NCBI GenBank assembly: GCA_036172245.1
Contig: JAYWIR010000074.1
Coordinates: 62,001-126,000 of the forward strand
DNA length: 64,000 nt
Source of the DNA: Raillietiella orientalis
Taxonomy: Eukaryota
Direction of reading: 5' to 3'
Part shown: piece after piece, positions 1 to 63,519 of the stretch
Numbering within the stretch: position 1 is the stretch's first letter
Layout: the number at the start of each line of letters is the position of its first letter
Made by a program: the position numbers and the translations under genes
The notes under the pieces: model-generated
Database searches by the model: none
The model's input: only the letters and a program-made list of their open reading frames with translations
Told to the model about the DNA's origin: nothing

Positions 1-1719
1 GGGCCGGACGGTCGGACTGGATTCGCTTGGGGATCCCCACGGGCAGGTACATCGAGTACCTTGGCGTTCCGTTGGGGGACTTCTGCTCTGCAGAAGCCTG
101 GTCCGGCCGTCTACAAAAGGTGGAGCTGGCGATCGGCCCGTTCCGGGACGGCAAGTTCCACTTGTAGGAACGGGCCACGGTATGGAACGCTTTCGCGGCA
201 CCCCTCCTTCGCCCCCTACTTTTTGTGTGCCCTACCCCGTACCAAGTCAGGACACGGACTAGGGGCCTTATACGGAAAGCCCTCTGGGGCAACCGGCGGC
301 CCCGCGTCCGGCTCAAAGACTTGTGCGCTCCACGCAGGGACGGTGGACTTGGTCTCCTGACGTTGGAGCGCATGGAGCGACAGCTCCAATTCAGAAAACT
401 TGCCCTTGTGGCAAAGTTTTAGACAGCACCCTGGTGTGCACCAGCAAGACTCCTTGCTCACAGGGCAACCGGCTGCTTCGAATTGACTTCAATCCTGGTA
501 GCCAAGGAACGCAGCCTGAACCATTGTGGTTATCAGCTGCGGGATTTGGTTGCTCTGATGAGAGACCACCCTTGGATCTCCTGCATCCCAGCGGACTGGA
601 CTACCTGGCTTCAGGAGTCCGTATCCGCATGGGCGAAGATCAATGGCACCAGCGATGAGGACTTCTCCTGCCTCTGCAGAGGGAGGCACGCTGGTCAGCT
701 ACTCCAGGAGATCGTTTCCAGCCCACGGAAACTTCTGTGGGCTTCCTTCACCCCCCTTGCCCCAGTGCTGCCCTCCCTCAGTTAAGTTCGGGACAGCAAC
801 CAACAGGCATCGTATGAAGTGTCCTGTCTCATCGGAGGCAGGAAGAAATCACTGAAGGCGTGGACGCCGAGGGAACTAGCGGACGCTAGTACCCCGAGTG
901 TCCCGCCGAACGGACTTTTACGCTGGGGCGCGCTACTCGGTATACCTCCGGAGGAGGTGAAGTGGCCCCCAGCGTCATGGGACAACGGCACCCTTCCCCT
1001 GCAGTGGCAGGAGACGACGTTGCTTCTGCCCCACTGGGGACCTTTAAGCAGAGCACGCCTGTCTCGCTGGACATCGGGGAATGTGGATGCTAGTTGTGCA
1101 GAGTGCGGGGAAAGCGAGACCTTCCCCCACTTGATTCTGGAGTGTGTTGCCCTCCACGAAATGTGGGACAGACTCTCGACGATCCTCAACATTCCGGAGG
1201 GTGACCCAAAAAATTTATTCAGACGCCTCCTGACGCGAGACGGCTTGTTAGCCTCCGGGAGCATAGCAGCACTCTGCTGCATACGCGGTATCCTGGAGAA
1301 GTGGACCGCGTCTAGGAGAGGAAGGACTAGCCGGAATGCCATCCACTGGGCAGCGATCTCCTTGGAGAAAGCGTGCCGTTGACGCCGACTTCAAAAACAT
1401 TTACCGACACTTGTTCGCATCCGAAACCGGATGCAAAGGCCTGCTCACGGCGCACCGTGATCCCCTCCCTCCCTCCTTCTCCCCAAAAACATTGCCCTTC
1501 AGACGTTTTTTTTTTTTTGTTTTGTTTTCTGTTTATTTTCCTTGTCTTGGCGCCAGTGAAGGACTTTATCGGCCTTTGGGTCGATAAACACAAGTGCTAC
1601 TGAACTTCAATGAACGTATGACGTCCAAAAAAGAAAAATTTTAACAACATAGACTTTATTACAAAATTTTGTAATGTCAAAATTTAAGTAATAAAAGCTC
1701 CGTCTAACCCGGGTGAAAA
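1..1719 (+). mobile_element. Element A (famA): 3' part of an L1/Tx1-like LINE (post-RT region, zinc finger, 3' UTR), degenerate
   Basis: YIEYLGVPLG, LKDLCAPRRDGGLGLLTLE and CAECGESETFPHLILEC across broken ORFs; stop in GTGATCCC near 1460; terminal box ccgggtgaaaa at 1709-1719. Confidence 0.93.
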
Positions 1720-4654: not shown

Positions 4655-7600
4655 TTGTCACCCGGGTACGCCCGGGGCGTTTATTTGTAAACTCTGTACG
4701 CATGGTTCGAGGCCCCACCACGGCCCTAAACACAAGACCTGTTGGGAGACCGGGACGCAGCCCGACGTGGCACTCCCCGACAGCGAAGGGGGATGGGAAG
4801 AAAAAAAAAATAAAAATGAAAAAAGAAACAAACAAAAAGAAGTTGGAGGGCAGGGAAGGGATCACTGGTCGCTTTGGGGAGGGACCATCCGTCGAACGAA
4901 GCCCTCGAGGTCAGTCTGCATATTCTTCAGTTGTGGCCATCCGGCAGCTCTTTGCAAGAAGCGTTTGGCATACGGGATGACATCCCTCGCCTGTGGACCC
5001 ACTCCTTCGTTGTTGGCGTCGCTCCATGCCCCCACGATGCCACGGACGCAGCACAAGGCTGCGATGGCTGCGGCTGGCTGCAGTGCGTCCTTCACGAAGA
5101 GGGGCCGAAGAACGTCTCTGGGGGTGCTGCCCGTAGGGAGCCCGAGGGTCGTCCCGAACCGTTCCCAAAAGGGTCGGAGGGCAGCACAATCCACAATAAG
5201 GTGGGGAAGCGACTCCCGCTCCCCGCACCTGGCACACGCAGGATCCACAGCTCCCCTCGTCCAGTGGAAGCGGCGCGCGTTGCAGGGTAGACCCCAGTGC
5301 AACAAAAGCAACGCCGACTCTTACCACTTGAGGGGTAGGATCCTGGATTCCTTCATCACCGGGGGCCACTTCAACTCATCCCTGGGGATGGCGAGCAGCT
5401 CGCCCCATCTTAATAATCCTCTCGGCTGGACGCTCGGGGTCGTGGCGTCGGCCAGTTCTCCTGTTGTTTAGCCGCTAATCAACTTCTCGCGTCCCTCGAT
5501 GCGGCAGCAAACTTGCCAACTTGGAGTCCGGCTGCTGTGAAGTGCCCTCCTCAGGAAGGGCAGCGCCGTAGCTAGGCAGATCTTCTCTGCCCACGTGCAT
5601 CTTGCTGGACTGTCCAGGAGATTCCGCAGCGTGCAGCGGGCGTAGGGGCTGTATCGGAGACGATTCCACAATTCGTGGCTCCTCTGGTTGACCGCTGCCT
5701 ACGTTCCAATATTCTCCTCCAGCCAGGCGGGGTAGTTGTCAGTGCAGCAAACCATCCAGCTGTTCTCCTTGGCCAATGTTGCCGTGCGCCCGAGCCGTAG
5801 GCCGCATCTTCGTATCTTCCGGCCACGGCTCACAAGAAAAGATGCGAGTCCATCGCTCCTTGACACACGACTGGAGAGGAGGCGGGTCGGAGTACACCAA
5901 GGGGTGCTTCACATCTTCGCTGCGATGGCGAGGGTTCGCCACAGCAGCTGTTTTTCCACGCGCTCCAGCGTCAGAAGGCCAAGATTGCCGTCCCGATGCG
6001 GAGCGCACAAGTCCTTCAAAGGGACTCGCGGTCTCCCTTTGCCCCAAAGGGCGAAACGGAGGAGGTCCTTTGTCCTCGTCTCCGATTCCACGGTGGGGGG
6101 GCATACAAAGAGCAAATGGCGGAGGATAGGGGCCGCGAAGGCGTTCCAAACCGTTGCCCGTTCCGGCAAGTGAAACTTGCCTCCCAGGAACGACGCGATG
6201 GCCGTCTCGACTTTTTGGAAGCAGCGGGACCACGTTTCCGCAGGGGAGTAGCCCCCCAACGGCACATGAAGGTAGTTGAAGCACCTCGCCGTGGGAATCC
6301 GCAGACGGTCCCAGTCCTGCTGCCCTGCCTGCGTCGCACCTATTGTCACCACCGACGACTCTGCCCTGTTGACCTGCAGTCCTGTCCCGCGACTGGAAAG
6401 ATCGAAGAAGTCTCCGACCGCCTTTGCCGGGGTGGACATTGGCAACAAGAGCAGAAGATCGTCGGCGTACGCTGCTACGGCGGGCGTGCCGGGGCACGAG
6501 CTCGGCAAGGGGGCCAAAGTCACCCTGTACGCTCTCAGCACCAACTCAAAGTAGGTGCTGAAGAGCAGGGGGCTGAGGCTTCCTCCCTGCCTTATGCCCC
6601 GCCGCACCGGCACGCCATACACCTTGTGACCGCTGAAAGAGACGGTAATCATCGCATTCCACCAGCAAGAGCGCAGGTAGGAAATCAGGGAGGGTGGGAA
6701 GCTCATGCGACCCAGGAGCTTGAAGAGTAGTTCCTTGTCTACACAGTCGATTGCCTTGTGGAGGTCGACTGCGAGCGTTGGGGCCCCCTTCCTCGCCCGA
6801 GGTTTCCTTCTTTGCCCGGCTGGCGGCCCCAATGTGGGGTTGCCGACTTTCCCTATCCCTTTCTTCTCTCTTCTCGGCAGGTGAACCCATGTGATTGCGA
6901 AGAAGAGGTTGGCATCCATGCTTTACCCGGGAACAGCATAAGTCTGCTCCGGGCTAATTACGGATTGTGCCACCTGCCCCAGACGCGAAGCCCATAGCCC
7001 TGCTATTAACTTGGCGTTCGTATTCACGATCGTGATTGGATGCCAGTTCTTTAAATCTCTGAGGTCTCTCCCTTTCGGAAGGAGCCTCACTCTGGCTGAC
7101 GGAACCGAGGCGGGAACATCGCCTTCGTCTCGAATCAGCCTGATCAACTTAAGCAACAGGGGCGTCAGCTCTTCCGGAAAGCTCTGAAGGAACTCTGCGG
7201 GCAAGTTATGTTCCCCTGGAGCTTCGCGCCTCTTGAGCCTTTTGATACCGGCGGGAATTTCGCCGGTGGTAAAAGGCTCGTCGAGGCTTTCTATCTCCTA
7301 CTCCCTTATTGCCGGGGCGCCATCCGGAAGCAAGCGGCGAGAAGCGTCTCGATCCGGGGGCTCCCTGGCGTAAAGGGAGGAATAAAAACTCCGCACGAGA
7401 TGCCGTACCGACGCCGGGGACAAACATTCCCGCCCCTGGTCGTCCAACAAGCTGGCCGACCCGGATTGCGAGGCTTTGCGTTCGGCCCTGGCGCGGTAAT
7501 CATCCAGGCGACGAAGATTAAAGGTTCTCTCGTACCTACGAGCATGTAAATAGGCCCGATGGTTGCAAATGCCCTTGGCGAATCCGGGGGGCAGGCGGTC

Positions 7601-7672
7601 TGAGTGGAACTGTCCACAGATCTCCCGGAGCGAGGCCTTAAAAAGGTCTTAATTTCTAAGATTCTGGAGCGT
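4655..7672 (-). mobile_element. Element C (famC): LINE lacking its 5' part, linker-RT-zinc finger-3' UTR
   Basis: ORF 5909..6919 has DLHKAID, QGGSLSPLLF, YADD; CARCGERESLPHLIVDC; terminal box at 4655-4665. Confidence 0.95.
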
Positions 7673-10600: not shown

Positions 10601-13200
10601 TCTTGGCCATCGCAAAGCTCAAGAGGCGGAAGGCTCCAGGGAAGGACAGCCTGCCCGCAGAGTTTTAGCAAACTTTCGCGGCAGAGCTTACCCCCCTGGT
10701 ACATCAGCTCACCTTGCTGATTCGCGAGACAGGTGACGTTCCCACCTCGTTTCGTTCAGGAAAGGTGCGGCTCCTACCAAAGAGAGGAGAACTAAGGAGA
10801 ATGAACAACTGACGTCCCATCCCAATAGTGAAGGCGGACGCCAAGTTGATAGCGAAGGTTTGGATAGAGAGGTTGGGACGGGTTGCCAACATTTTCATCA
10901 GCCCGAAACACACATATGCTGTTACTAGGCGAAGCATGGAGGCGAACCTGTTCCACGCTCCCAACCTGGCTAGAGCTCCAACAAGAAAGGAGCTTGGTGC
11001 GCAGCCGGAATTTCGGTGCGTCCGTTGGCGGGAAACATGACGGTCGGGTGGGGAAGGGAGCTCTTGTGGTCGCTGTCGACTTGCTTAAAGCATTCTACAG
11101 CGTCGTCCAGAATCTCCTGCTGGAGATTCTGGAACGCTTGGGCTTCCTGGCCTCTTTGTTAGCCTACCTGCGCTCCAGCTGGCGCGATGCGCTCATTAAT
11201 GTTCTTTTCAGCGGGCAAACCGTGCACGGAGTACCGGTGCGAGCGGCATACGGCAGGGAGACAGCCTGAGCCCCCTGCTCTTTAGCTCCTTTTTTGAATT
11301 GGTGCCGAGAGCATACAGGGAGACTCTGGCGCACCTGCCGCGCGTTTGTCCCGGTACGCCTGCGGTTTAGGCATACGCGGACGATCTTCTGCTACTCATC
11401 ATTATGTCCACCCCGCATTCGGCGGTCGAGGAGTTCTTCGACCTCCTGCATCAGGGAACCGGACTTATAGTGAACAGGGCGAAGTCGTCCGTAATGCCAG
11501 TCGGAGCGGCGTGGGTAGGGCAGCAGGACTGGGTCCGTTTGGGGATCACCACGGTGAGCTACTTCAAGTACCTTGGTGTGCCGTTAGGGGACTACTCCCC
11601 TGCGGAAGCGTGGTCCGGCTGCCTTCAGAAGGCTCAGGTGGCGATCGGCCCGTTCCAGGACGGCAGGCTCTACCTGCAGGAACAGGCGCGGCGTTGAACG
11701 CGTTTGCGGCACCCCTCCTTAGCCCCTTGCTTTTTGTTTGCCCCGCCCCCGTGGAATCAAAAATGCGGACGAAGGACCTTCTCCGCATAGCTCTATAAGG
11801 CAAGGGGAGGCCCCGAGTCCCTTTGAAGGACTTGTGCGCTCCGCGTCGGGACGGCGGTCTCAGCATCCTGACGCTGGAGCGCGTGGAAAGCCAGCTGCGA
11901 TGGCGAACTTTCGCCATCGCAGCGAAGATGTGGAGCACCGCTTGGTCCATTCCGGCCCGCCTCCTGGCCAGACGTGTGTCCCTCTGCGGAGGACTCGCAT
12001 CGTTTCTTCTGTGCCCTGGGCGGAAGATTCGAAGATGCGGTCTACTGCTCGGCCCCATGGCAACCCTGGCAAAGGAGAACGACTGGATGGTTTGTGGCCC
12101 CGCCAACTCCTCCTCTTGGCTGAAGTTGACTGCTGGCACCTGGGCCAAGCAGAACCAGAGTTGCGAAGACCGGATTTACTGCCTGCGAGTCGGCTTTTAC
12201 GCCCGCCGAACTCTCCCTGAAATTCTTGAATTTCCACCGAGTTGCACGTGGGAGGAAGGCACACCCCTTGTTACGGCGATGCCCTTCCTCCAAAGGGCGC
12301 TTCACGAAAGCCGGAAGCCAAGGTGGCAAGTCTGCTTCCGTATCGCAGGCAGAGAGAAGATGATGAGCGGCTGGACCATGGGAGAGTTGACAGATGCAAC
12401 GACCCCTAGTCTCCAGCCGCGTGGATTAAGAAGATGGGGCGAGCTGCTCGGCATTTGATTGGAAGACCTGGAGTGGCTTCCGGTTCTACTTGGATCCAGG
12501 ATTCTTCCCCTGAAGTGGCAAGAATCGGCGGTTCTGTGGCTGCATTGGGGTCTACCCTGCAACGCGCGCCGCTTCCACTGGACGCGGGGAAGAGTAAATC
12601 CTGCGTGTGCCAGGTGTGGGGAGCGGGAGTCGCTCCCCCACCTCTTAGTTGAATGCTCTGCCGTCCAGATTTTCTGGGATCGTCTGAAAACGGCCCTCCG
12701 GATACCGGATGGTGGCAATGTTGGATGTGTCTTCAGTCTTGTCTTCGTGCGGGACGCCCTCAGTCCAGCCGCAGCCCTGGCAGCACTTTGCTGCATTCGT
12801 GGTATCGTGGCGGCCTGGAGTGATGCCGAAGATGAAGACTGCATCGTGAGGGACGTCATTGAGCATGCTTCTTGCTTCCTGAAGAGAGCTACCCGATGGC
12901 TCAATCTAGGAAAACTGAAAATGGAACTAGAAGGCATCCTGCAAAGGATGGGCGCTCTCAGCAGTCTTCTGTGATCCCTTCCCGGCCTTCCAAACTTTTT
13001 TTTTGTGGTTTGTTTTTCTCTTTTATTTTATTTTTGTTTTCTACCCCATCCCCCTCCACTGCCGAGGAGAGCCTCACCGGGCTGCGTCTCGGTGTCCCGG
13101 AAGTTCCGGTATTGCGTGGCCGTTAGTGGGGCTTTGTACCACGTTCTGTATTGACTGTTGAAATGTTTTTAGTAAACGTCCCGGCGTATCCGGATGGCAT
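7673..13200 (+). mobile_element. Element D (famD): full-length (~5.5 kb) but degenerate LINE
   Basis: 5' motif ggacgtgtcttttt at 7678; ORF1 knuckles (7923..8627); APE ~9400-10130; RT with YADD ~11375; zinc finger; stop 12974; terminal box ccggatggcat 13190-13200. Confidence 0.95.
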
Positions 13201-15676: not shown

Positions 15677-15755
15677 TTGTCAACCGGATATGCCGGGGCA
15701 TTTTTTATTCTAATTTGTTACAAAAATTAGATAATAAAGTCTTTTAAAAGATTTC
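15677..15755 (-). mobile_element. Element A2: ~80-bp 3'-terminal remnant of a famA LINE
   Basis: Reverse complement resembles the last 80 nt of A4 (48341-48420), including tgccccggcatatccggttgacaa. Confidence 0.85.
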
Positions 15756-18620
15756 TGTGTCTCCAGCTGGTATTCGCCGCATCGTAAGACGCTATTACTC
15801 CTCGCTATGCGTGGAAGCGCCTACGGAAAATATCTTTTCGGAGATACTTCTGTCCCAGGATGCTCCCGTTGTTAGCGAAGAAGAACGCGTATGTCTCGAC
15901 GTGTCCTTCTCGGTAGAGGAAATTTCCTCGGCTATCGCGGGAATCAAGATACGAAAAGCACCAGGTAAGGACGGGCTATCCGCGGAGTTCTATCAGAGCT
16001 TCTCTGAGGAACTCTTCCCTCTGGTGCTTAGCCTCTCCTCGTTGATGAGGGTCTCGGGGGATGTCCCCAATTCCTTCTGCTCAGCGAGGATGCGTCTCCT
16101 GCCGAAAGGTGGAGACGCACGCCATCTCAACAACTGGAGTCCCACCACCCTGGTGAACTCGGACGTCCAGTTGTTCTCTAAGCTGTGGGTTTCGCGGCTA
16201 GGGAGAATCGCGCAGTCCTTGATAAGGCCGGAGCAGACTTACGCTGTTCCCGGGACGTCCAGGTACGCGAATCTCCTGTTTGCCCGCACCTGGATGCAGC
16301 TGCAGGAGCGCGTAGCGCAGCAAAGCCGATCCGTGTCCAAGGCCGCTGCCAAAGGCATACGGTATCGACACAAGCGGCAGAACGGTACGCCAGGTGCCTT
16401 GGCAGTCGCAGTAGACCTGCACAAGGCGTTCGATTTGGTAAACCAAGGGCTCTTATTAAAGCTCTTGGAACCCCTGGGTCTCCCGGCGCATCTCCTGAAG
16501 TACTTACGCGCTTGCTGGCGCCACGCGCTAACCTGCATTTCTTTTAGCGGCTGCCACGTGTACGGTATTGCCGTGCGCAGGGGCATCACACAGGGTGACA
16601 GCTTCAGCCCGTTGCTCTTCAGCATCTTCTTCGAGTTGGTGCTGAGGGCGTACAGGCTAACGCTGGAGTACCTGCCTAGCTCCTACCCGGGTACGCCTGC
16701 CGTGGCTGCCTATGCAGATGACCTGCTTTCTCTGCTCCCTGTGTCCACCCCGGCGTCCAGTGTCGAAGATTTTTTCGAACAGATTCGTCGGGGAGCGAGC
16801 GGGGGTGTGAACCTGAAGAAGAGCGTGGTCGTACCTGTAGGAGCATCGTGGATGGGGCATTACGACTAGATACGCCTCAAGATCCCCACGGCAGGGAATT
16901 TGAAGTATCTTGGTGTTCCGCTGGGTGAGAGCGGTTCTGCTGAGGCGTGGTCAGACTGCATTCCAAAGGTAGAGTTGGCAACCTGCCCGTTCACTAACGG
17001 CAAGCTCACTTTGCTGGAACGGGCAACTATTTTTAACACCTTCGTAATTCCCCTCCTTCGACCCCTGTTTTTTCTCTCGGATGTCCCCTACGCTGGCAAA
17101 GAGCAAGCAAAACTCCTGCTAAGGAACGCTTTCTAGGGTCCAACGCGATTCAGGATCAGCCTGAAAGACCTAGCAGCACCACGTCGGGATGCTGGTCTTG
17201 GCATCCTTACGATGGAGAGAATCGGACTGCAGGTGCAGTTTCGGATAATCGCACTGTGTGCCGAGCTATGGACTTATCCTCTCTGTGCGCCTCCGCGCAT
17301 ACTCCTAAAAAGGTGTGCAGGCTGTGAAGAACTTCTTCCCTTGGTGCCTGGCATGCGTCACAGGAAACAGGGATTTGGCCATCCTCTGAGGCAAATCGCC
17401 TTCCTATTGGATGACAATGCGTGGATTTCCTGATGCCCGATGAACTACAATGCTTGGCGGCAGGAATCTATTGATTCTTGGGCTGCATTCTTAGGAATGA
17501 GCCGTGAAGATCTCTAGCCCCTGCGTCGATTTCAACTTTGGTCCCACCAAGATGTAATGCAGGACACGCTGAAGTTTTCCTACCTAGCCGCCACGCCCCT
17601 CGACGAAGCACTCTCTGCACTCGAGGATGGAGATGACAGTAGCCAGCCTGTGAACTGGCAGTTCTCCTGCACCATTGCAGGAAGAACAAAACCAGTTGGA
17701 GAATGGGCCGCGAACGAGCTTGCGGATGCCGCCACTCCTCGTGCAACACCAAAGGGACTACTTCGGTGGAGAGAAGCACTAGGTGTTGCTCCCGAGGAAC
17801 TTACAATCCCTCCTTGGTGTTTGGACGGTTGGTGTTTACCTTTGCATGGAAGCAAGACGTCTTGCCGTTCTTGCACTGGGGCTTGCGCTACAACAAGCGG
17901 CGCCACCGAGTTTCCGGTGCGGTGGCTTCTCCCTACTGTGCCCGGTGCGGGGCGACGGAGTCGTTCCCGCACCTTTTTATGGACAGCGGTGCCCTCCTCG
18001 AACCCTAAAGGAGGCTAGCAGCAGCTCTCCCTCCTCCGGATGACACTGCTCGAGAAGTGCTGCGACGGTTCTTCCAGCCACAAGGACTATCGATGGCTGC
18101 GACGATTTCCACTGTTGGTTGCATCCACGCCATCGTCACGGTCCGAGACGTGCAGGAGAACACTGGACAGCAATGTTGTGTCACCAGGAAGGCAGCTGAA
18201 TTCATCAGGTCGGCTGCTGGGTGGCGACACATATATGAAGACACAATGGAGCAGCTAACCGGTATCCATCGCCGGATGAGCAACGGCTTAGAACGAAGAA
18301 CCCGGTGATCCGCCCTCATTTTATTTTTAATTTTGTTCTTTTCTCGCATCTTTTTCCCTATACACTTCGCAGTGGTTTTGGTGCTAAAACTTTTGACTTT
18401 AACAGGGACTGCACAGCGTCACCAAAGTTCCCTGGCCCACTCCTCCCATTAACAATTTTTTTTTTTTTTTTGGACTCCCCTCAGTCGTCCATGTTCTTCC
18501 GTTTTCCTGGTCTTCGTGCCAGTAGTGGAACTCCGCTGCATGTTTTGATAGTCCTGTGCTGGAAACAACTATTTCTAGCTCGTTTATATAGATAAACGTA
18601 CCGGCGTGAGCGGGTAAAAA
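15756..18620 (+). mobile_element. Element F (famF): 5'-truncated LINE, RT to 3' end
   Basis: ORF 15757..16869 has KAPGKDG, DLHKAFD, QGDSFSPLLF, YADD; CARCGATESFPHLFMD; stop 18308; terminal box gcgggtaaaaa 18610-18620. Confidence 0.95.
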
Positions 18621-20502: not shown

Positions 20503-21578
20503 CACGTTCGAACGGTAGTGCCTGGTTGCAGGAAACCGTTCGAACGTGGGGACAGTTCGGAATGCAACGCTCCCCACAGGGACGAAGGTTCCTGTTTGGA
20601 GGTTACAGAAGTTGCACGCTTTGTGAGTTCCTGGAGGATCCAAAGAAGAGAGCGTGGGCATGAAGAACCCCCCTTGCTGCCGCGCTGCCCTACCTGATGG
20701 AAGATCTGGACAGCGATGTTGCGGCGAAGTGAGAGGTTACAGTTGCAATCTTCGGGAAGGAGAAGAAGATAGGAGAGTGGAAGGCGGGTTAGCTATCTGA
20801 CGCTGCCACCCCGAGTATGCCTTCTAATAGACTTCTTCGCTGGGGCGCGCTGCTTGACGTTCCCATCGAATGTCTGAAGTGGCCCCGGTACATATGGACA
20901 CCTTCACTGTCCCCTTCAAATGGCAGTAGTTGGCTCTCCTGGTGCGGCACTGGGGACTCTTCTGCAACGCCTGCCGACGCCAATGGACCTGTGGAACGGT
21001 GGACCTCAATTGCGTCCGGTGTGGGGAACGGGATTCCCTTCCCTACCTGCTTTTGGATCGTGTTGCCCTTTGGCCCCTTTGATTCCGCTTCGCCGCGGCC
21101 ATTCGAATCCCCTCCGACAACCCCAGGGACGCTCTGAAATCCCTCTTCGTTGCCGACGCCCTTTGGCCAGCGGCCTTGTTAGCAGCCCTGTTCTGCCTAC
21201 GCGGGATCGTCGCCGCCTGGAGCAAGGCTACGGGAGGACCACACGACCAGGGTGTTATCCAGCCAGCCTCCGAATTCCTGAGGAGGGCGTCGCGATGGCG
21301 TCACCCGGATCCAAGCATACAGCATGAGCTTGCCGGCATCCTGCAAAGGATGGAATGGCTCCACTAGCTACAGTGATCCCTTCCTGGTCGATCTCAATCA
21401 TTCTTTTCTTTTTGTTTTGTTTCTTGTTTTTTTCCTCTTTCCCCCTCCGCCGTGGTGGACCGTACCTTTCTGCGAACTCTGTGTTTCTTCGTTCGTTGCT
21501 GGGCAATGGTCCAGCCACTGCACTTCTTTTTTAAAGTTTATTGTTTCTGTAAAGGCCCCAGGAAAATCCGGGGGAAAA
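20503..21578 (+). mobile_element. Element H (famH): 3' part of a LINE
   Basis: Collinear with element O (62430-63519); zinc-finger remnant; terminal box ccgggggaaaa 21568-21578. Confidence 0.9.
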
Positions 21579-24340: not shown

Positions 24341-24379
24341 TCATGTGTAGTGGCGTATGCTTAACCGTTTTAGGTTCAG

Positions 24380-39310: not shown

Positions 39311-39342
39311 AAAATCCGGCTTTAGGACTAAAGCCGGATTTT
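39311..39342. repeat. Perfect 15-bp inverted repeat with a 2-nt spacer
   Basis: aaaatccggctttag-ga-ctaaagccggatttt. Confidence 0.95.
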
Positions 39343-46895: not shown

Positions 46896-48420
46896 TTCGC
46901 GGCCCCCCTCTTTCGCCCCTTACTTTTTGTTTGCCCCGCCCCTCCCATCATACAGAGACGGACCAAAGCCCTCTTGAGGACTGCCCTTTAAGGCACAGCG
47001 AGGTCGCGATTCCGATTGAAAGACTTGTGCGCTTAACGCAGGGATGGTAACTTGGGCCACCTTCAGTTGGAGCGCATCCAACTACAAACAACACTTCGAA
47101 AGTTAGCCCTAGCAGCTAGCTTATGGCTGACGCCATGTTGCGATCGGGCACGGCTCCCCGCCAGAAGAGCGACCGGTTGCGAAGGATTGTCCTCGATTCT
47201 CGTGACCTACCAGCGCAGCCTCTCCAAATGTGGACCCGATTTACGACAGATGGTCGCCCTATTAAGGAAGAATACCTGGATCTCCTGCTTCTCCGCGAAC
47301 TGCACTGCCTGGCTTCAGGAGTCAGCTTCCGCGTGGGCTAAGATCAACGGCACGAGTTAGGCGGAATACAACTGCCTACGACGAGGACCGTACGCTCGAC
47401 AGCCGCTGCAGAAGATTATCAACACGCCCCGGAACTTTCTGTGGGCTTCTTTCAGCCCCCTTGCCCCCGTTTTGTCCTTCCTAAAAAACACTAGGAGCAG
47501 CAACGAGCGGGCATCGTGAGAAGTGTTCTGCCTCATCCGAGGCAGGAAAAATCCTTTAAAGGCGTGGACGACTCGGGAGCTCACGGACGCTGCCACCCCG
47601 AGCGTCCCGCCTCACGGACTTGCGCGCTGGGGAGAGCTGCTCGCAATACCTCCGGAGGAGGTGAAGTGGCCCCCAGAGTGTTGGGATTGCGGCACACTTC
47701 CGTTTTAGCAGCAGGAGACGGCGTTGCTATTTCTGCACTGGGGACTGTTAAGCAGAGCACGCCTGTCGCACTGGACACTGGGGAATGTGGATGCCCGCTG
47801 TGTCGAGTGCGGAGAAAGAGAAACCTTCCCGTATCTCACCCTCGAGTGTGTCGCCCTGGATGGACTCTAGATTTGAATGGCCCCAATCCTCCATCTTCCA
47901 GTAGACGACCCTAAGGAAATTTACCGTCGCCTCTTTCTGCGTGACGGCCTGCGCCCCGCTGCGTCTCTAACAGTCCTCTGCTGCGTGCGCGGCATCGTGC
48001 AAAGGTGGCACGTCAGAAGAAGAGGCTCAAGATGCAGGGACGCCATCCTCTAGACGACGATCTCTTTAGAGACGGCGACAAGGTGGCGTCTACCTTTCAC
48101 AATAAAACCCGAACTTGACTGCATCCTTGACAGGATGCGGAGGAACGAGCCAGTCGCCCAGTGATCCCTTCCCTGCCCCCCCCCCTCCCCATTTAACTGT
48201 TTCCCTCCCCGTTATCTCTCTTTTTGTTTGTTTTTGTTCTAGTTTTCCCTTCCCATGCGCCTCGGGAATGGACCTAACTGGTCTATGCACCGGCAACCGA
48301 CACGTCGAGCAAGGTGGGACAACCCAGTGTTTCCCCACAGAAAACATCTTTTTAAAGAATTTTTATCTAATTTTTGTAAAAAATTAGAATGTTAAATGCC
48401 CCGGCATATCCGGGTGACAA
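46896..48420 (+). mobile_element. Element A4 (famA): 3' part of a LINE, possibly the 3' end of J after an internal deletion
   Basis: Homologous to A and A3; joined to J through ttcgcg microhomology; terminal box ccgggtgacaa 48410-48420. Confidence 0.9.
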
Positions 48421-51013: not shown

Positions 51014-54000
51014 TTGTCACCCGGGTACCCCCGGGGCATTTATTTGTAAACTTTACATGCGTGGTACGAGGCCCCACCACGGCCGTAAACAGAGGACCTG
51101 TCGGGACACCGGGACGCAGCTCGGCGTGGCACTCCCCGACAGCGAAGGGAGTTGTGGATAAGACAAAAAGAAAAATAAAAAGAAACAAACAAAAGCAAGT
51201 TGGAGGGCAGGGAAAAGATCACTGGTCGCTGTGAGGAAAGTCCATATGTCGAACGAAGCCCTTGAGGTCTGTCTGCATATTCCCCAGTTAAGGCCATTCG
51301 GCAGCTCTTCGCAAGAAGCGTTGGGCATACGGGATGACATCCCTTGCATGTGGACCCACTCTTACGTTGTTGGCATCCCTCCATGCCGCCACGATGCCAC
51401 CGACGCAGCACAAGGCTGCGATGGCTGCGGCTGGCTGCAGTGCGTCCTTCACGAAGAGAAGTCGAAGAACGTCTCTGGGGGTGCTGCCCGTAGGGAGCCC
51501 GAGGGTCGTCCCGAACCGTTCCCAAAGGGGTCGGAGGGCAGCACAATCCACAATAATTTGGGGAAGCGACTCCCGCTCCCCGCACCTTGCACACGCAGCA
51601 TCCACAGCTCCCCTCGTCAAGTGGAAGCGGCGCGGATTGCAGGGTAGACCCCAGTGCAACAAAAGCAACGCCGACTCTTACCACTTGAGGGGCAGGATCC
51701 TGGATTCTTTCATCACCGGGGCTACTTCAGCTCATCTCTGGGGATGGCGAGCAGCTCGTCCCATATTACTAATCCTTGCGGCTGGACGCTTGGGGTCTTG
51801 GCGTCGGTCAGTTCTCCTGTTGTCCAGACGCTAATCAACTTCTCGCGTCCCTCGATGCAGCAGGAGACTTGCCACCTTGGCGTCCGGCTGCTGTGAAGTG
51901 CTCTCCTCAGGAAGGGCAGCGCCGTAGCTAGGCAGGTTGTCTCTGCCCACGTGCATCTTGCTAGACTCTCCAGGAGATTCCCCAGAATGCAGCGGACGTA
52001 GGAACTGCATTGGAGACGATTAGAAGTTTCGTGGCTCCTCCGATTAACCACTGCCCACGTTCCAATATTCTCCTCCAGCCAGGCGGGACAGTTGGCAGGG
52101 CAGCAAACCATCCACCTGTTCTCCTTGGCCAATGTTGCCATGCGTCCGAGCACTAGGCCGCATCTTCGCGTCTTCCGGCCACGGCTCAGAAGAAAATACG
52201 CAAGTCCATCGCACCACGACAACCGGCTGGCCAGGAGGCTGGCCGGAGTGCACCAAGGGGTGCTCCACATCTTCGCTGCGATGTCGAGGGTTAGCCACCG
52301 CAGCTGCTTCTCCACGCGCTCCAGAGTCAGGACGCCAAGACCGCCGTCCCGACGCGGTGCGCACAAGTCCTTCAGAGGGACTCGGGGCCTCCTCTTGCCC
52401 CAAAGGGCGATACGGAGGAGGTTCTTTGTCCTCTTCTTCGATTCCACGGTGAAGGGGGCAAACAAAAAGCAAGAAGCGGAGGATGAAGGCCGCGAAGGCG
52501 TTCAAAACCGCGGCTTATTCCAACAAGTGAAACTTGCCTTCCAGGAACGGGCCGATCGCCGTCTCGACTTTTTGGAGCCAGCTGGACCACGCTTCTGCAG
52601 GGGAGTAGTCCCCCAAGGGCACACCAAGGTACTTCAAGCACCTCGCCGTGGGGATCCCCTGACGGACCCAGTCCTGCAGCCCGGCCCACGTTGCACCTAT
52701 TGGCACAACCGACGACTTCGCCCTGTTAACCTAGAGTCCGGTCCCGCGGCTGAGCAGATCGAAGAAGTCTCCGACTGCCTTTGCCGTGGTGGACATAGGC
52801 AACAAGAGCAGAAGATCGTCGGCGTACCCAGCTACTACAGGCGTGCCTGGGCACGAGCTCGGCAAGGGGGTTAAAGTCACCCTGTGCGCTCTCAGCACCA
52901 ACTCAAAGTAGGTGCTGAAGAGCAGGGGGCTGAGGCTACCTCCCTGCCTTATGCACCGCTGCACCGGCACGCTATACACCTTGTGACCGCTGAAAAAGAC
53001 GGTAATCATCGCATTCCATTAGCGAGAGCGCAGGTAGGAAATCAGGGAGAGTGGAAACCCCATGCGACCCAAAAGCTCCAAGAGGAGTTCCTGGTCTACA
53101 CAGTCGAACGCCTTGTGGAGATCGGCTGCAAGCGCTAGGGCCCCATTCCCCGTCCAGGGGTATCTTAACAGCCCATCTGGCGGCCCCAATGTTGGGTTGT
53201 CGACTCTCCCTATCCCTTTCTTCTCTCCTCTCTGCATGTGCACCCATGTGCTTGCGAAGAAGTGGTTGGAATGAATACTTCGCCCGAGAACAGCATAAGT
53301 CTGCTCCGGGCTAATTACGGATTCTGCCACCTGCCCCAGACGCGAAGCCCATAGCCCTGCTATCAACTTGGTGTCCGTATTCACGATCGTGATCGAATTC
53401 CAGTTCTTTAAATCCCTGAGGTCTTCCCCTTTCGGAAGGAGCCTCACTCTGGCTGACCGAAACGAGGCGGGAAGATCGCCTTCGTCTCGGCTCAGCCTCA
53501 TCAACTTAAGCAGCAGGGGTGCCAGCTGTTCCGCGAAGCTCTGAAAGAACTCCGCGGGCAACCTATCTTCCCCTGGAGCTTTACGCCTCTTCAGCCTTTT
53601 GATACCGGCGAGAATTTCGCCGGTGGTAAAAGGCTCGTCGAGGCTTTCCATCTCCTCCTCCCCTATTGCCGGGGCGCCATCCGGAAGCAAGCGCTGAGAG
53701 GCGTCTCGATCCGGGGGCTCCCTGGCGTAAACGGAGGAATAGAAACTCCGCACGAGATGCCGTACCGACGCCGGGGACGAACATTCCCGGCCCTGGTGGT
53801 CCAGCAAGCTGGCCGACTTGGATTGCCAGGCTTGGCGTTCGGCCCCGGCGCGGTACTCGGCCAGGCGACGGACATTAGGGGTTCTTTCGTACCAATGAGC
53901 CTGTAAATTGGCCCGATGGTTGCAAGGATCCTTGCCGAATCAGGCAAGCAAGTGTTTTAGGGGGAGCTGCTCCCAGAACTCCCGGACCGAGGCCTTAAAA

Positions 54001-54355
54001 AGGGCCAGAACCGTAAGATTCTGGAGCGTGACGCCTCTCAGAATTTGCAAAGGTGTTCCTTCGCATCTGACAGTCGCTTTTAGTCCCCCGAAAGACGCCA
54101 ATCCCTAAATAACGGTCCCTTGTCGCGAGGCCGCATCTCGGAAATTAGCCAAGAATGGTGCGACAGCGTCGACGCAATCTTCCTACATTTGCCGACCCGT
54201 GAACATAGGTCAGCTACGGGGAAGAGTGTGGTCGATGCTGCAGTCCATTCACCTCTCTCCCTCGAACAAGTTGCGCGCACGCATGGAGGCGCACAACTCG
54301 TTCATCGCGTTCTCTTGTGTTTCTGGCTCACCTGTTAGCAGACGGAGATTGAAAT
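51014..54355 (-). mobile_element. Element L (famC): ORF2 from APE (D)FN to 3' end
   Basis: ORF 53019..53807 (KAPGEDR, DLHKAFD), YADD, zinc finger; terminal box 51014-51024; closely similar to C. Confidence 0.95.
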
Positions 54356-56521
54356 TTATCACCCGGTCACGCCTCGGCGTTTATTAATAATAATAAACTG
54401 GTCAGACACAATGTCCTCAACCAACAGAACGACAGAGAACATAGAAAAATTACCGGCACGCAGGCGTGGGAGGAATGAGGGGAAACAATCAAAAATCAAA
54501 AACTGGAGGGAAGGGTAACAAATTTTTGGATAGGCTCCGTACTCACGGGGATTTATACGATGAGCACCTGAAATTTTCCGGAGCCTATAGGGACGCGGGT
54601 GTAAAATGAAAATACAAAATTAGTTCATGGAGGGTGAGGCAATGATCACCGGGTTGTCCGCTGCTGAGGGTGTGTAATCAGGCGGTGTATTGCGGCGAGA
54701 TTCCTTTTTGTCTCTTCTGTCAAATGAGGTTATCTAACGCATGCTCCTATATAGAAGGATGCTTTGCTGATTACCTCTTGGTGCTGTCCGTTGATTGCCA
54801 ACGCCTGGCGGACGGAAACTATCGCGCGTTTGCAACCGATGGTTGCAATCCTTGCGCTTAGGGACAGCCCGCTCGGCGTGAAGAACCGTCGCAGCAAGTC
54901 TCTTGCGCTGTCCACGGGATGCATTAGTGCTGTTGCCAGCCTACGGCACAGTCCTTGTAGGACACTGCAGTCCAGAAGTAGGTGCGGAATCGACTCCGAC
55001 GATCCGCACCGAACGCAGTTCGCAGACGTAAGTCCCCCGGAGTCACGATGCCAACGCTCGTTGCACTGAAAACCCCAGTGAACAAAAAGCAGCACGGCTT
55101 GTTTCCAAGCAAGGGGGAGCAGCGAACTGTCAATACACTGTGGAGGGACTACAAGTTCTTCGGGGGGGGCAGCAAGTTCTTCTGCCCACCGGAGGAGTCC
55201 CTTTGCAGTAACACGAGGAGTGGCGGCGTCCGCCTACTCACTCGTCTTCCAGGCGCCAAGGAGTTTGGTTTTTCCCGCTATCGTGCAACTCGCCGGTAAG
55301 TAACTGTCGTTTCTCGCCCTGCGGGCAGACAGCGCTGCGGCAAGAGGCGTGGCAGCCAGAGTAGAAAACTTCACCTCGTCCTGCAGTACTTCTTCCAAGG
55401 ATCGTGGAAAATATTGGCGCAAAAGGCGAAGATCTTCAGGGCGTATTTCTTGGAACGCCGTCCAGGATTCAACAGACTCCTGCCGCCCAGCTTGAAAGTT
55501 CATTGGGCGGCAGGAGATCCACGAGTGAGCTTCCAGAAGTGCGGTCAACTGCCGCAATGGAAACCGAAACCCCGCTTCCTGTATTGAGTGCCCGGCAAAA
55601 GCAAGAGAAATCCTCCGCTGCCGTCGCATCTCCGCAGGAGAATGCCAGCTGACACACACAGAAGGGATGTCCATAGCTGGGCACACAGTGCCAGCAGTCG
55701 GAACTGCACCTGCAGTCCGATTCGCTCCATTGTCAGTAAACCCAAAACAGCAGCCCAACGCGGAGCTAACAAATCTTTAAGGCGGATCCTGGATCTCGCC
55801 GGACCCCAGAGAGCGTTCCTGAGCAGGCGTTTAGCCCGCTGTTTCGCCGTATAGGGGGACTCCAAAACAAAAAACAGGGGACGGACGAGCGGGGCCACAA
55901 AGGTGTTCTAAATAGTCGCCCGTTCCTGCAAGGTGAACTTGCCGTTAAAGAACGGTCTGATGGCCAAATCTGCTTCCCGAAGACAGTCCGCCCACGCTTT
56001 GCCTGCGCCGAAAGCACCCGACGAAACGCCAAGGTACTTGAAGTACCCGCCCGTAGGGATCCCCAGGCGGATCCAGTCGGACTGCCCCTCCCACGACGTA
56101 CCCACAGGAACGATCGCGCTCTTCTCTCTGTTCACGCTCACGCCCGCTCCCCGACGAATCAGGTCGAAGAAATCCTCGACACTGGACGCCGCGGTGCACA
56201 TGGGGTGCAGAAGAAGCAGGTCATCAGCGTAGGCGGCCACGGCAGGCGTTCCCGTGCAGGAGCTTGGCAAGTGAGACAGCGTCAGCCTGTATGCTCTTAG
56301 CACCAACTCAAACAAGATGCTTCATAGCAACGAGCTTAAGCTGTCGGCCTGGCGGATGCCCCTACGAACGGGAATACCATACACGCGGCAGACGCTGAAA
56401 GTGATGCAGTCTAGCGCGTGGCGCCAGCACGCGCGCAAATATCAGCAGGAGTTGCGCCGGGAACCCAAGGCGTTCCACATGCTCTAAAAGCAGCTTCTGG
56501 TTTACGCGGTCGAACGCCTTG
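54356..56521 (-). mobile_element. Element M (famF): 3' half (KAFD to 3' end) of an element whose upstream part is P
   Basis: YADD (55908..56315), CVRCGSSESIPHLLLDC; terminal box ccgggtgataa at 54356-54366. Confidence 0.93.
56510..56521. repeat. Target-site duplication, left copy
   Basis: tcgaacgccttg versus tcgaactccttg at 63520-63531. Confidence 0.8.
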
Positions 56522-59500: not shown

Positions 59501-62051
59501 GCGGAGTTTTATCAAACTTTCGCGGCTGAGCTTAGCCCCCTGGTACAGCAACACACCTTGCTGATACGCGAAACATGTGACGTTCCCGCCTTGTTTCGTT
59601 CGGCAAAGGTGCGGATCCTCCCTAAAAAAGGAGATCTGAGGAGCATGAACAACTGGCGTCCGATCACAATAGTGAATTCGGCAGCCAAGTTGATAGCCAA
59701 GATGTGGGCAGAGCGTTTGGGACGCGTTGTCAACATCGTCATCAGCTCGGAACAGACATATCCTGTTCCCAAGCGAAGCATGGAGGCGAACCTGTTCCAC
59801 GCTTCCACCTGGCTAGAGCTCCAACATGAAAGGAGCTTGGTGCGCAGCCGGAATTCCGGTGCGTGCGCCGGCAAGGGGTTGGATGGTCGGGTGGGGAAGG
59901 GAGCACTTGCGGTCGCAATCGACTTGCGGAAAGTATTCGATTGCGTCGACCAGAATCTCCTTCTAGAGCTTCTGGAACGCTTGGGCTTCTTGGACTCATT
60001 AGTGGCCTATCTGCGCTCCTGCTGGCGCGAAGCGCTCATCAATGTTACTTTCAGCGGGCAGACCGTGCACGGCGTGCCGGTGCGGCGTGGGATCCGGCAG
60101 AGAGACAGCCTGAGCCCCTTGCTCTTCAGTACCTACTTTGAGTTGGTACTGAGAGCGTACAGGGGAACTCTGGCGCATCTGCCGCACGACTGTGCCGGTA
60201 CGCCGGCCGTTTCAGCATACGCGGACGACCTTCTGCTGCTGCTCCCTATGTCCACCCCGGCTGCGGCGGTCAAGGAGTTCTTCGACCTGCTGCATCGGCG
60301 AACCGGACTTACGTTGAACACGGCGAAGTCGTCCGTGATGCCAGTTGGTGTGGCGTGGGCAGGGCAGCAGGACTGGGTCCGTCTGGGTATCCCCACGGTG
60401 AGGTGCATCAAGTACATCGGTGTGCCGTTGGGGGACTTCTCTCCTGCGGAAGCGTGGTTCAGCTGCCTCCAGAAAGTCGAGACGGCGATCGGCCCGTTCC
60501 TGGAAGGCAAGTTTCACTTACCGGAACAAGCCGTGGTTTGGAACGCCTTCGCGGCCCCCAACCTCCGCCCCTTGCTTTTTGTTTGCCCCGCCCCCGTGGA
60601 ATCAAAAAAGCGGACTGAGGACCTCCTCCGCATAGCTCTTTGGGGCAAGGGGAGGCCCCGAGTTCCTTTGGAGGACTTGTGCGCTCCGCGTTGGGACGGC
60701 GGTCTCAGCATCCTGACGCTGGAGCGCGTGGAAATCCAGCTGCGATGGCGGACCCTCGCCATCGCAGCGAAGATGTGGAGCACCGCTTGGTGCATTCCGT
60801 CCCGCCTCCTGGCCAGGCGTGTGTTCCGCTGCGAAGGACTCGCATCGTTTCTTCTGTGCCCTGGCCGGAAGATTAGAAAATGCGGTCTAATGCTCGGCCG
60901 CATGGCATCCCTGGCAAAGGAGAACGACTGGATGCTTTGTTACCCTGCCAACTCCTATGCTTGGCTGGAAGAGACTGCTGGCACCTGGGCGAAGCAGAAC
61001 CAAAGGTGCGAAGACCGGATGAACTGCCTGCGAGTCGGCTTATACGCCCGCCGCACTCTTCGTGAAATTCTTGAATTTCCACCGAGTTGCACGTGGGCGG
61101 AAGGCACACCCCTTGTTACGGCGATGCCCTTCCTCCAAAGGGCGCTTCACGGAAGCCGGAAGCCAAGGTGGCAAGTCTGCTGCCGTATCGCAGGCAGAGA
61201 GAAGATGATGAGCGGCTGGACCATGGGAGAGTTGACAGATGCAACGACCCCTAGTCTCCAGCCGCGTGGATTAAGAAGATGGGGCGAGCTGCTCGGCATT
61301 CGATTGGATGACCTGAAGTGGCCCCCGGTTCTACTTGGATCCAAGATTCTCCCCCTGAAGTGGCAAGAATCGGCGCTTCTGTGGCTGCATTGGGGTCTAC
61401 CCTGCATCGCGCGTTGCTTCCACTGGACGCGGGGAAGAGTAAATCCTGCGTGTGCCAGGTGTGGGGAGCGGGAGTCGCTCCCCCACCTCTTAGTCGAATG
61501 CCCTGCCGTCCGGATTCTTTGGGATCGTCTGAAAACGGCCCTCCGGATACCGGATTTGGTGGCAATGTTGAATGTATCTTCAGTCTTGTCTTCGTGCGGG
61601 ACGCTCTCAGTCCAGCCGCAGCCCTGGCAGCACTTTGCTGCATTCGTGGTATCGTGGCGGGCTGAAGTGATGCCGAAGATGAAGACTGCATCGTGAGGGA
61701 CGTCATCGAGTATGCTTCGCGCTTCCTGCAGAGAGCTACCCGATGGTCCCATCTAGGAAAGCTGAAAATGGAACTAGAAGGCATCCTGCAAAGGATGGGC
61801 GCTCCCAGCAGTTTTCTGTGATCCCTTCCCGGCCCTCCAAACTTTTTTTTTTTTTGTGGTTTGTTTTTCTATTTTATTTTATTTTTGTTTTTTCCCCCTT
61901 CCCCCTCCACTGCCGAGGAGAGCCACACCGGGCTGCGTCCCGGTGTCCCGGCAGTTTCCGCATTCGGTGGCCGTCAGTGGGGCCTTGTATTACGTTCTGT
62001 ATTGACCGTTGAAATGTTTTTAATAAACGTCCCGGCGTATCCGGGTGGCAT
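56522..62051 (+). mobile_element. Element N (famD): full-length (~5.5 kb) LINE, best preserved copy in the window
   Basis: ggacgtgtttt 56535; ORF1 knuckles; TAATG 58234-58238; APE; 712-codon RT stretch; stop ~61820; terminal box ccgggtggcat 62041-62051. Confidence 0.96.
58236..61820 (+). pseudogene. ORF2 of element N: APE endonuclease, reverse transcriptase, CCHC zinc finger; a few frameshifts and stops
   Basis: WNVNG, QE, GDFN, IDH, SDH; NWRPITIVN, DLRKVFD, QRDSLSPLLF, YADD, KYIGV; CARCGERESLPHLLVEC. Confidence 0.94.
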
Positions 62052-63519
62052 CGCCCCCTGCTTTTTGTTTGCCCCATCAGAGAGAGAATTAAAAAGCGGA
62101 CAAAGGACCTCCTCCGTATCGCTTTTTGGGGCAACGGGAGGGCCCGAGTCCCCTTAAAGGACTTGTGCGCTCCTCGTCGGGATGGTGGTCTAGGCCTCCT
62201 GACGCTGAAGCGGCTGGAACTTCAGCTCCAGTACCGATTGTCGGCACTGGTTCCAGAGTTGTGGTGCACCTGTTGGTGTCTCCGTGCACGTCTCCTTCTC
62301 CAGCAAGCCACCGGCAAGACGGGACTGACGTCGTTTCTTGCACTCCGTCGCCGCGTCAACCGATGCGGACTCCAGCTACGGAGGGTGGCTGCGCTGTACC
62401 GGGAAAACCCAGGATTGCTTACCTGTCGCCCTTTGAACGGTTGTGCCTGGTTGCAGGAAACCTTTCGAACGTGGGAACAGTTCGGCATGCAACGCTCCGA
62501 ACAGGAACGAAGGTTCCTGTTTGGGGGTTACAGAAGTTGCACGCTCCGCGAGATCCTTTAGGATCCTAAGAAGAGGGAGTGGACAGGAAGAACCCCCCTC
62601 GCTGCTGCGCTGGACTCCTTAGTGGAACATCAGGACAGCGATGCTGAGGCGAAGTGGGAGGTTACAATAAAAATCTCCGGGAAGGAGAAGAAGCAGAGAG
62701 AGTGGAAGACGGGCCAGCTAACTGATGCTGCGACCCCGAGTACGCCTCCTAATGGACTTCTGAAGTGGGAAGCGCTGCTGGATGTTCCGATTGAACATCT
62801 GAAGTGGCCCCTGATTCTTATGAACACTTCCATCCTCCCCCTAAAATGGCAAGAGTCGGCATTCCTGTTGCAGCACTGGGGACTCCCCTGCAACGCCCGT
62901 CGACACCACTAGACCTGGGGAGCGGTGGATCCCAATTGTGTAAGGTGCGGGGAACGGGAGTCCCTCCCCCACCTCCTAGTGGATCGTGTTGCCCTTCGGC
63001 CCCTTTGGTTCCGCTTTGTCGAGGCCATGGGAATCCCCTGCGGCAACCCCAGGGACGCACTGAAAGCCCTCTTCGCTGCTGACGCCCTTCGGCCAGCGGC
63101 CTCGTTAGCAGCTTTGTGCTGCCTACGCGGGATTGTCACCGTTTGGAGCAAGGCTACGGCAGGACAACGCGATCAGGCTGCCATCCAGCCAGCCTCCCAG
63201 TTCCTGAGGAGGGCGTTCCGATGGCCCCACCTGGATCCAGGAATACAGAAGGAGCTTGCCGACATCCTGCAAAGGATGCAACGTCCCAACTAGCAACTGT
63301 GATCCCTTCCCTTACCCTGCCAACTTTTTTTTTCTTTTTTGTTTTGTATTTTGTATTTCTTCCTTCCCCTCCTGCCGTAGTGGACCGTACGGGTCTGCGA
63401 ACCGGAGACCCGGCAGGCTCCGTGTTTGTTCGTGCGTGGCTGGAGCAATGGTCCAGCCACCGCACGTCTTTGTAAAAGTTTATTTTACAATAAACCCTTC
63501 GGATAAATCCGGGTGAAAA
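62052..63519 (+). mobile_element. Element O (famH): 5'-truncated LINE
   Basis: RPLLFVCP, LKDLCAPRRDGGLGLL, CVRCGERESLPHLLVD; terminal box ccgggtgaaaa 63509-63519. Confidence 0.93.

Follow-up and report, generated by a model that had tools for sequence, protein, structure and literature searches.

Thirteen copies of long interspersed elements (LINEs) in a stretch of Raillietiella orientalis DNA end in a common 3'-terminal module, and at all 13 of them the foreign DNA starts exactly 6 nucleotides (nt) beyond the 3' arm of that module. The stretch, hereafter called the window, is the whole 64,000 nt analyzed (GenBank assembly GCA_036172245.1, contig JAYWIR010000074.1, positions 62,001 to 126,000 of the forward strand), and its features are listed in Table 1. 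In our judgment the module probably, though by no means certainly, acts as a cis-signal for the ORF2 protein, governing both the choice of RNA and the first nucleotide copied, as in LINEs of the stringent type.

A conserved module closes the 3' ends

A first-pass annotation of the window had proposed a shared signal at 13 element ends. The module was present at each of these positions, closing in every case the 3' untranslated region (UTR) of a LINE copy of the type that carries an apurinic/apyrimidinic-like endonuclease and a reverse transcriptase (RT). It is 35 nt long and consists of an AATAAA-like hexamer, 3 nt, CCCGG, a loop of 4 to 5 nt, CCGGG, and a 6-nt tail; the aligned last 35 nt of the 13 ends read (A/T)ATAAA-YGY-CCCGG-loop-CCGGG-TGACAA. 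The tail is TGACAA and variants thereof, and the loops are family specific (CATAT, CGTAT, CGTA/GGTA, CGTGA, and A(T)AAAT). When as many as 3 mismatches were allowed, the pattern CCCGG-N5-CCGGGTGACAA matched the window 11 times against 0.50 expected, a number reached in none of 100 shuffles. Ten of these 11 were at the annotated ends, and degenerate yet recognizable versions of the module stand at 18620, 41521, and 63519. The eleventh match, at 50677, lies in coding sequence without an AATAAA; it is probably due to chance and was not counted as an end.

A covariance model of the 35 columns, trained on the 13 termini, found all of them at E values of 2e-8 to 4e-5, a recovery that is circular by construction. 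With the filters off and both strands of the 64 kb searched, the model gave no further match better than E 0.23. Its weak matches at 7559-7594 (E 0.23) and 40061-40090 (E 3.5) were inspected and not counted as ends; the former (plus strand, 16.7 bits) is the antisense of the A1 endonuclease, at a position equivalent to the junction site of the A- and C-type elements described below. The model also found no partner short interspersed element (SINE) sharing the tail in the 64 kb, one window being a weak test. The only short copy, 85 bp long at 15677-15759, is a truncated LINE 3' UTR.

The module was far better conserved than the remaining 3' UTR. Cross-family identity was 69.1% over the last 28 nt, 49.4% over nt 29-56, and 38-47% farther upstream, where it was at the level of random 28-mers (42%), in agreement with the first-pass statement that the rest of the 3' UTR differs among families. 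These values are based on 72 pairs in the three windows nearest the end and on 62 pairs beyond, where the 85-bp copy at 15677 was left out. We additionally noted the motif TGTAA, which is the green-algal polyadenylation signal, about 45-50 nt upstream of the 3' end in 6 of the 13 3' UTRs (1719, 15677, 22096, 48420, 51014, and 63519); TGTAT occurs in 2 further 3' UTRs. The motif may be a hint about the host.

Element ends lie at a fixed distance from the module

At 10 of the 13 ends, the flank has an uninterrupted paralogue that locates the boundary between element and foreign DNA to the exact nucleotide. For the three ends at which a D-type element meets an E-type element (1719, 15677, and 48420), the boundary was set by analogy with 22096. 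The flank after 62051 (CGCCCC...) is intact in C2 at 60566, that after 22096 (ACCA...) is intact in A1 and A2, and that after 41521 (ACGACAAC...) is intact in C2 at 57675. ATTTCAA..., which follows both 18620 and 54356, is intact in C2 at 58702 and in E1 at 4232, and TCGAAC..., which follows 21578 and 63519, is intact in A2 at 53104. The flank after 4655, 13200, and 51014, C(G/T)CCG.AACC..., aligns with C2 at 59123 and with C' at 19038. Homology between C1 and C2 ends at 13204/62055, and that among the D copies ends at 22094/48422 and 15675. In both the D family (22096 versus 48420/15677) and the C family (13200 versus 62051), one and the same 3' UTR and module precede flanks that are unrelated, indicating that the motif is part of the element. 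The possibility that it is target DNA was rejected, as it travels with the element into different flanks.

None of the 13 ends carries poly(A), as the first-pass annotation had stated. The longest A run across a junction is 6; it is found at 18620, and one of its A's is part of the target. The ends of the C family finish in ...GGCAT, and their last bases are therefore templated rather than the remnant of an A tail. An intact reference was available for six junction classes, and in none of them did the last element base match the lost target base. Microhomology was thus not seen at the junctions, and priming guided by it was rejected.

All 13 are real element ends, but they are not 13 independent events, as they fall into seven junction classes. 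In the first class, a D-type element leads into the 5' start of an E-type element (1719, 15677, and 48420), and in the second, an A- or C-type element leads into E-type endonuclease sequence in antisense, near amino acid (aa) 263 (4655, 13200, and 51014). F and G run into the DFN codons of an endonuclease (18620 and 54356), H runs into the antisense of an RT at aa 152 (21578 and 63519), and three junctions are singletons (22096, 41521, and 62051). A fixed 6-nt distance is to be expected if reverse transcription has a stringent start that is positioned by a protein.

The reduction of 13 ends to seven classes would also be in keeping with a module that has no present function and owes its spread to common descent, segmental duplication, and gene conversion within one nest. 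So would the threefold occurrence of a block made up of a D, an E, and an A or C element, and the mosaic structure of C1 relative to C2, in which the two halves of the RT are 56% and 85-89% identical at the protein level. We consider this explanation very improbable. Families are 69% alike over the last 28 nt but at the random level in the adjoining 3' UTR, a pattern that needs either selection on master copies or repeated capture of the module. In addition, the distance from the stem is 6 nt in each of seven distinct junctions formed de novo.

Proposed role of the module and transcript 3'-end formation

Under the reading we favor, that of a cis-signal, the ORF2 protein would pick its RNA by the 3'-terminal module, and the module would set the first nucleotide copied in target-primed reverse transcription. 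Copies would consequently share a single fixed terminal base and lack both poly(A) and a microsatellite tail, and annealing to the target would play no part. The module may fold as an RNA hairpin to which the ORF2 protein would bind, and the AAUAAA-like hexamer may also serve in forming the 3' end of the transcript. If the hexamer, 24-25 nt before the end, does direct cleavage, the RT must ignore the A tail. A selectively conserved terminal module, the lack of an A or repeat tail, a fixed first nucleotide, and the lack of annealing together match what is seen in stringent-type LINEs.

Alternatively, the module might mainly signal transcript 3'-end formation, with the RT copying from whatever RNA end exists, so that the precise ends would reflect RNA processing and not recognition by the ORF2 protein. 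Processing could consist of hexamer-directed cleavage about 25 nt downstream near a CA, or it could yield a nonpolyadenylated stem-loop end like that of histone mRNA. AATAAA or a one-base variant is indeed found 24-25 nt upstream of the end at 13 of 13 ends. The exact hexamer AATAAA occupies the aligned position at 7 of the 13 ends. At 15677 it is displaced by 3 nt, and the remaining five hexamers are the one-base variants ATTAAA, GTTAAA, AGTAAA, GATAAA, and TGTAAA. A CA within the 6-nt tail (7 of 13) also speaks for cleavage, and a stem with a short loop and an end 6 nt past the stem recalls histone mRNA ends. However, copying of a cleaved, polyadenylated RNA should leave A tails, and 0 of 13 ends have one. 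The CCCGG/CCGGG arms are unlike the histone stem. No Rfam model, including those of the histone 3' stem-loop, matched the window at the gathering score, and over two termini at E values of up to 10 there were only unrelated chance matches, at E 0.29 or higher. An origin of the ends in RNA processing is therefore rather unlikely in our view.

Evidence for and against a hairpin

An inverted repeat was present at all 13 ends, with five stem pairs in six of them, four in four, and three in three. The first-pass annotation had described a CCCGG/CCGGG stem with a 5-nt loop; the loops measure 4-5 nt. Well-preserved copies (4655, 51014, 22096, 48420, and 62051) fold at -8.8 to -14.0 kcal/mol, and only 0-8.5% of 200 mononucleotide shuffles of these five were equally stable. 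In the A family, one extra closing G-C pair has arisen (G inserted, T>C) around the loop CGTA/GGTA, and in H2 pairing is kept via two G-U pairs. Both changes are compatible with a structure, and each is a single event. The weak folding of decayed copies is as expected under neutral decay and adds no support. Judged from the sequences, a hairpin is plausible but unproven.

Several observations weigh against a cis-signal read as a hairpin by the ORF2 protein. Among the 13 termini, none of the five pairs has changed on both sides, the covariation score of 0.067 was reached by 439 of 500 shuffles, and the share of paired cells was 84.6%, against 85.9% on average in the shuffles. The RNAalifold consensus retains only 4 pairs (-1.56 kcal/mol), none of them compensatory. 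The stem has 3-4 pairs at 7 of the 13 ends, and several termini fold no better than shuffles. Both arms hold the palindrome CCGG, and in these arms an inverted repeat is indistinguishable from a direct repeat. Every copy examined has stops or frameshifts, and the fixed start rests on about seven independent events, a pattern that is still consistent. The covariation test had no power because the stems barely vary. Missing covariation had been named in advance as grounds for giving up the hairpin; it arises here trivially, as there is nothing to covary, and is not a refutation.

The palindrome raises the alternative of a sequence site in place of a hairpin, namely, two CCGG half-sites about one helical turn apart. 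Such a site could be readable in double-stranded DNA or in single-stranded RNA, and its reader could be an element endonuclease that targets existing copies or a host factor. Arms that read equally well as a direct and as an inverted repeat are in line with this, as are near-invariant stems with varying loops and no compensatory change. Moreover, all 13 ends adjoin LINE DNA, and at 7 of 13 another LINE then follows head-to-tail, as in self-targeting clusters. However, no target-site duplication or nick-site consensus ties new insertions to the motif, and the sole structural change, that of the A family, adds a pair and not a half-site. We regard a sequence site of this kind as quite unlikely.

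Recurrent junctions between LINEs

The same junction nucleotide recurs in targets that belong to different LINE families, and it lies inside conserved codons. The recurring junctions are 4652/4655, 13204/13205, and 51011/51014; 18620/18621 and 54355/54356; and 21578/21579 and 63519/63520. H joins ahead of TCGAACGCCTT, the antisense of the RT K-A-F-D codons, while F and G join ahead of ATTTCAA, which corresponds to D-F-N in the endonuclease. The junction lies ahead of CGCC for A and C and ahead of AC for D, the latter often at the 5' terminus of a full-length element. The break points are thus DFN in the endonuclease, K-A-F-D in the RT, and a 24-nt stretch that is conserved in all RT copies.

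Sequence identity changes abruptly at these junctions. A1 and A2 are 83-95% identical, compared to 57-74% for their E1 and E3 flanks. H1 and H2 are 68-91% identical (about 80% overall), and their flanks are 56-65% identical. The H flanks come from different families, one being 82-84% identical to A1/A2 and the other 70% identical to F, with a mutual identity of 59.5%. No nucleotide similarity was detected between the ORF1 of E1 and that of E2/E3. The jumps in identity at the junctions would mean that different families were hit at one and the same site in independent events. These jumps, the H flanks of different families, and the dissimilar ORF1 of E1 led us to reject the view that simple segmental duplication alone produced the repeated junctions. 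Twin priming was also rejected, since it is the inner junction, not the outer edge, that holds the 3' terminus.

It is possible, but we hold it only tentatively, that the LINE families home onto one another, joining the same nucleotide in the conserved codons of other families. Candidate causes could be a family-specific endonuclease preference, annealing of a read-through flank to the conserved site, or RT jumps onto the shared 3' module. Gene conversion bounded by the junctions is another candidate explanation for their recurrence. In the tblastn map, the far half of the target was never present beyond the insert at any junction; this would mean that unfinished insertions were joined to each other, rearranging the nest. 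Self-targeting LINE nests have been described before, in Zepp/ZeppL (PMC8226300, PMC3446292).

Proteins and clade

C2, the best-preserved copy, has matches to the Pfam families Exo_endo_phos (58158-59564, 5.5e-9) and RVT_1 (59486-61696, 1.5e-18). The endonuclease and RT frames of C2 are offset and overlap by 79 nt in different frames, reflecting either a frameshift mutation or programmed frameshifting. RVT_1 was detected in four open reading frames (ORFs) of the window, and Pfam also identified a CCHC knuckle in the ORF1 at 2210-3910. Among solved structures, human L1 ORF2p is the RT's best match (3e-19), with R2 at 1e-11. Matches to zf-RVT were below the Pfam cutoff in both C2 (E 0.024; 15.7 bits against a cutoff of 27.5) and copy x (E 0.0013). 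The nearest protein clusters carry RVT_1 plus zf-RVT, and one close protein, P0001, is 64% identical. From these comparisons the proteins look L1-like, and membership in the L1 clade is weakly shown.

The LINE nest

The window has a GC content of 54-60% at 1-24 kb and 42-64 kb and of 45-50% in between. Its GC-rich parts consist of nested copies of non-long-terminal-repeat retrotransposons, all old and dead, from at least six or seven families. We mapped the elements by tblastn with the proteins of C2, which gave about 19 pieces in alternating orientation (Table 1). Internal stops were found in 15 of 16 RT segments (1-7 stop codons each), and only the RT frame of C2 is open. Copies within one family differ by 10-30%. 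Where a LINE follows head-to-tail, it begins at its own 5' end or is truncated.

Table 1. LINE pieces of the window and the 3'-terminal modules of the 13 ends
Piece	Span	Strand	Module	Remarks
el1 (D-like copy)	1-1719	+	1685..1719	Degenerate 5' arm; 34.9 bits, E 1.3e-5; RT aa 292-690 at 3-1199
E1	1720-4652	+		
A1	4655-7672	-	4655..4690	6-bp stem CCCGGG/CCCGGG, loop CGTA; 46.7 bits, -12.3 kcal/mol
C1	7673-13204	+	13166..13200	3' arm G>A, 4 pairs left
E2	13205-15676	-		
D1	15677-15759	-	15677..15711	85-bp 5'-truncated copy; 15675-15759 matches 22094-22174
F	15760-18620	+	18586..18620	Degenerate, 35.9 bits; flank begins at DFN codons of C-type endonuclease
C'	18621-20501	+		
H1	20507-21578	+	21543..21578	Flank is antisense of A-type RT from aa 152
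A-type fragment	21579-22095	-		
D3	22096-24345	-	22096..22130	44.4 bits; boundary set by intact A1/A2 paralogues
ORF1 fragment	40715-41520	+		
x	41521-43962	-	41521..41555	3' arm decayed to CCAAG; 38.3 bits; boundary from intact C2 at 57675
D2	~43963-48420	+	48386..48420	0 mismatches to core consensus
E3	48421-51011	+		
A2	51014-54355	-	51014..51049	6-bp stem, loop GGTA; -14.0 kcal/mol
G	54356-56523	-	54356..54390	Degenerate 5' arm, 41.7 bits; flank begins at A2 DFN codons
C2	~56530-62051	+	62017..62051	Best-preserved copy; 45.4 bits; boundary from intact RT paralogues
H2	62052-63519	+	63484..63519	5' arm TTCGG, two G-U; 32.9 bits; flank is antisense of F/x-type RT from aa 152
RT fragment	from 63520	-		

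The full-length elements C1, D2, C2, and E2 begin with a common 5'-terminal motif near GGACGTGTYTTTT (7673-7690, 43960-43975, 56525-56545, and 15660-15676 on the minus strand), and three E-type 5' starts directly adjoin a D-type 3' end. The mosaic structure of C1 (10642-12846) relative to C2 (59486-61696) extends beyond the RT, where 56% refers to the N-terminal half and 85-89% to the C-terminal half; protein identity is about 44% in ORF1 and 57% in the endonuclease. This suggests recombination or conversion between families. The end of C' (20481-20506) matches two places, namely, position 60567 in C2 and position 62053 at the start of H2, and H1 then resumes at the equivalent of H2 position 62432. 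There thus seem to be two C-then-H pairs, one of which has an internal deletion.

The region from 24700 to 40700 (45-50% GC) is without recognizable genes and contains a decayed RT remnant at 32980-33529. Apart from LINE pieces, the ORFs of the 24-42 kb stretch gave no Pfam match, and for a 332-aa ORF at 30655-31653 we found neither a Pfam match nor a homologue. A metagenome search with a five-row RT alignment matched 100 stretches, none of which was confirmed by tblastn. Matches to the DNA motif at 27 metagenome loci were attributed to chance, as tblastn revealed no LINE protein and the contexts were unrelated. The contigs of DNA run X1 (13% of sampled words) were short pieces, 85-95% alike.

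Comparison with known systems

L1-clade LINEs with a 3' hairpin or without poly(A) have already been described (PMC3472496), and the first-pass premise that the L1 clade relies on poly(A) is too broad in view of these counterexamples. Ohshima (2012) reported a monocot L1 lineage with a conserved 3' hairpin and compensatory changes (PMC3472496). The monocot 1a and LINE1-1_ZM elements resemble those of the window in combining L1-type proteins with a conserved terminal region of about 45 nt, the hairpin of which has a stability of about -11 to -13 kcal/mol (PMC3472496). In the monocot L1 elements, however, the stem varies while the loop and 3' flank are conserved, whereas in the window the stem is invariant and the loop varies. 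Green-algal L1 families provide a further likeness: of 15 families, 13 lack poly(A), 5 of these being without any 3' repeat, and just 2 end in (A)n (PMC3472496; PMC3747384).

Zepp and ZeppL of green algae form GC-rich nests that insert into existing copies, Zepp having a GC content of 61% compared to 53% for its genome (PMC3446292, PMC8226300). The window resembles them in being a GC-rich nest (54-60% against 45-50% here) with head-to-tail arrays of 5'-truncated copies, in which all ends abut LINEs. In contrast, Zepp and L1-1_CR end in (A)n (PMC3472496, Table 1) and the window elements do not, and, unlike in Zepp/ZeppL, several families are intermixed here in both orientations.

The eel element UnaL2 and the zebrafish elements ZfL2-1 and ZfL2-2, all of the L2 clade, have a short conserved stem-loop at the very 3' end and no poly(A), to which the putative terminal hairpin and the missing poly(A) of the window elements would correspond. 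The ORF2p of ZfL2/UnaL2 binds the 3' stem-loop, reading the stem generally and the loop specifically; in ZfL2 it does so through the linker between its endonuclease and RT domains, and the loop confers cognate specificity (PMC4176376). The window resembles ZfL2 in having stems common to the families and loops specific to each. Since the loops are family specific here and the ZfL2 loop gives specificity, the free cross-family mobilization suggested in the first-pass annotation should be viewed with caution. UnaL2 and ZfL2 end in short tandem repeats such as (TGTAA)n that are used for slippage (PMC3747384), whereas the window elements have a fixed 6-nt tail and no repeat. Furthermore, unlike those of UnaL2/ZfL2, the window proteins look L1-like and not L2-like, and, unlike in stringent L2-clade systems, no partner SINE was seen here.

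The site-specific elements R2, R1, SART1, and the Tx1 group share with those of the window a precise cDNA start without an A tail, and here too the same target nucleotide is reused. The targets differ, however, being coding motifs of other LINEs here instead of ribosomal DNA, telomeres, or small nuclear RNA genes. Also unlike in site-specific LINEs, the other half of the target is never found beyond the insert.

Significance

If the proposed role of the module is correct, the window would contain another L1-like lineage that chooses its RNA by a terminal stem-loop and copies from a fixed base. This would add weight to the idea that stringent recognition is old in the L1 clade and that dependence on poly(A) is derived (PMC3472496). 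With every copy here dead, the finding is of modest immediate value. Nevertheless, a small, sharply bounded module that occurs in several families with different loops would offer a natural series for separating stem from loop recognition. The repeated insertion junctions of one LINE in another could also shed light on the assembly and rearrangement of self-targeting nests. In some algae, such self-targeting LINE nests are candidate centromeric DNA.

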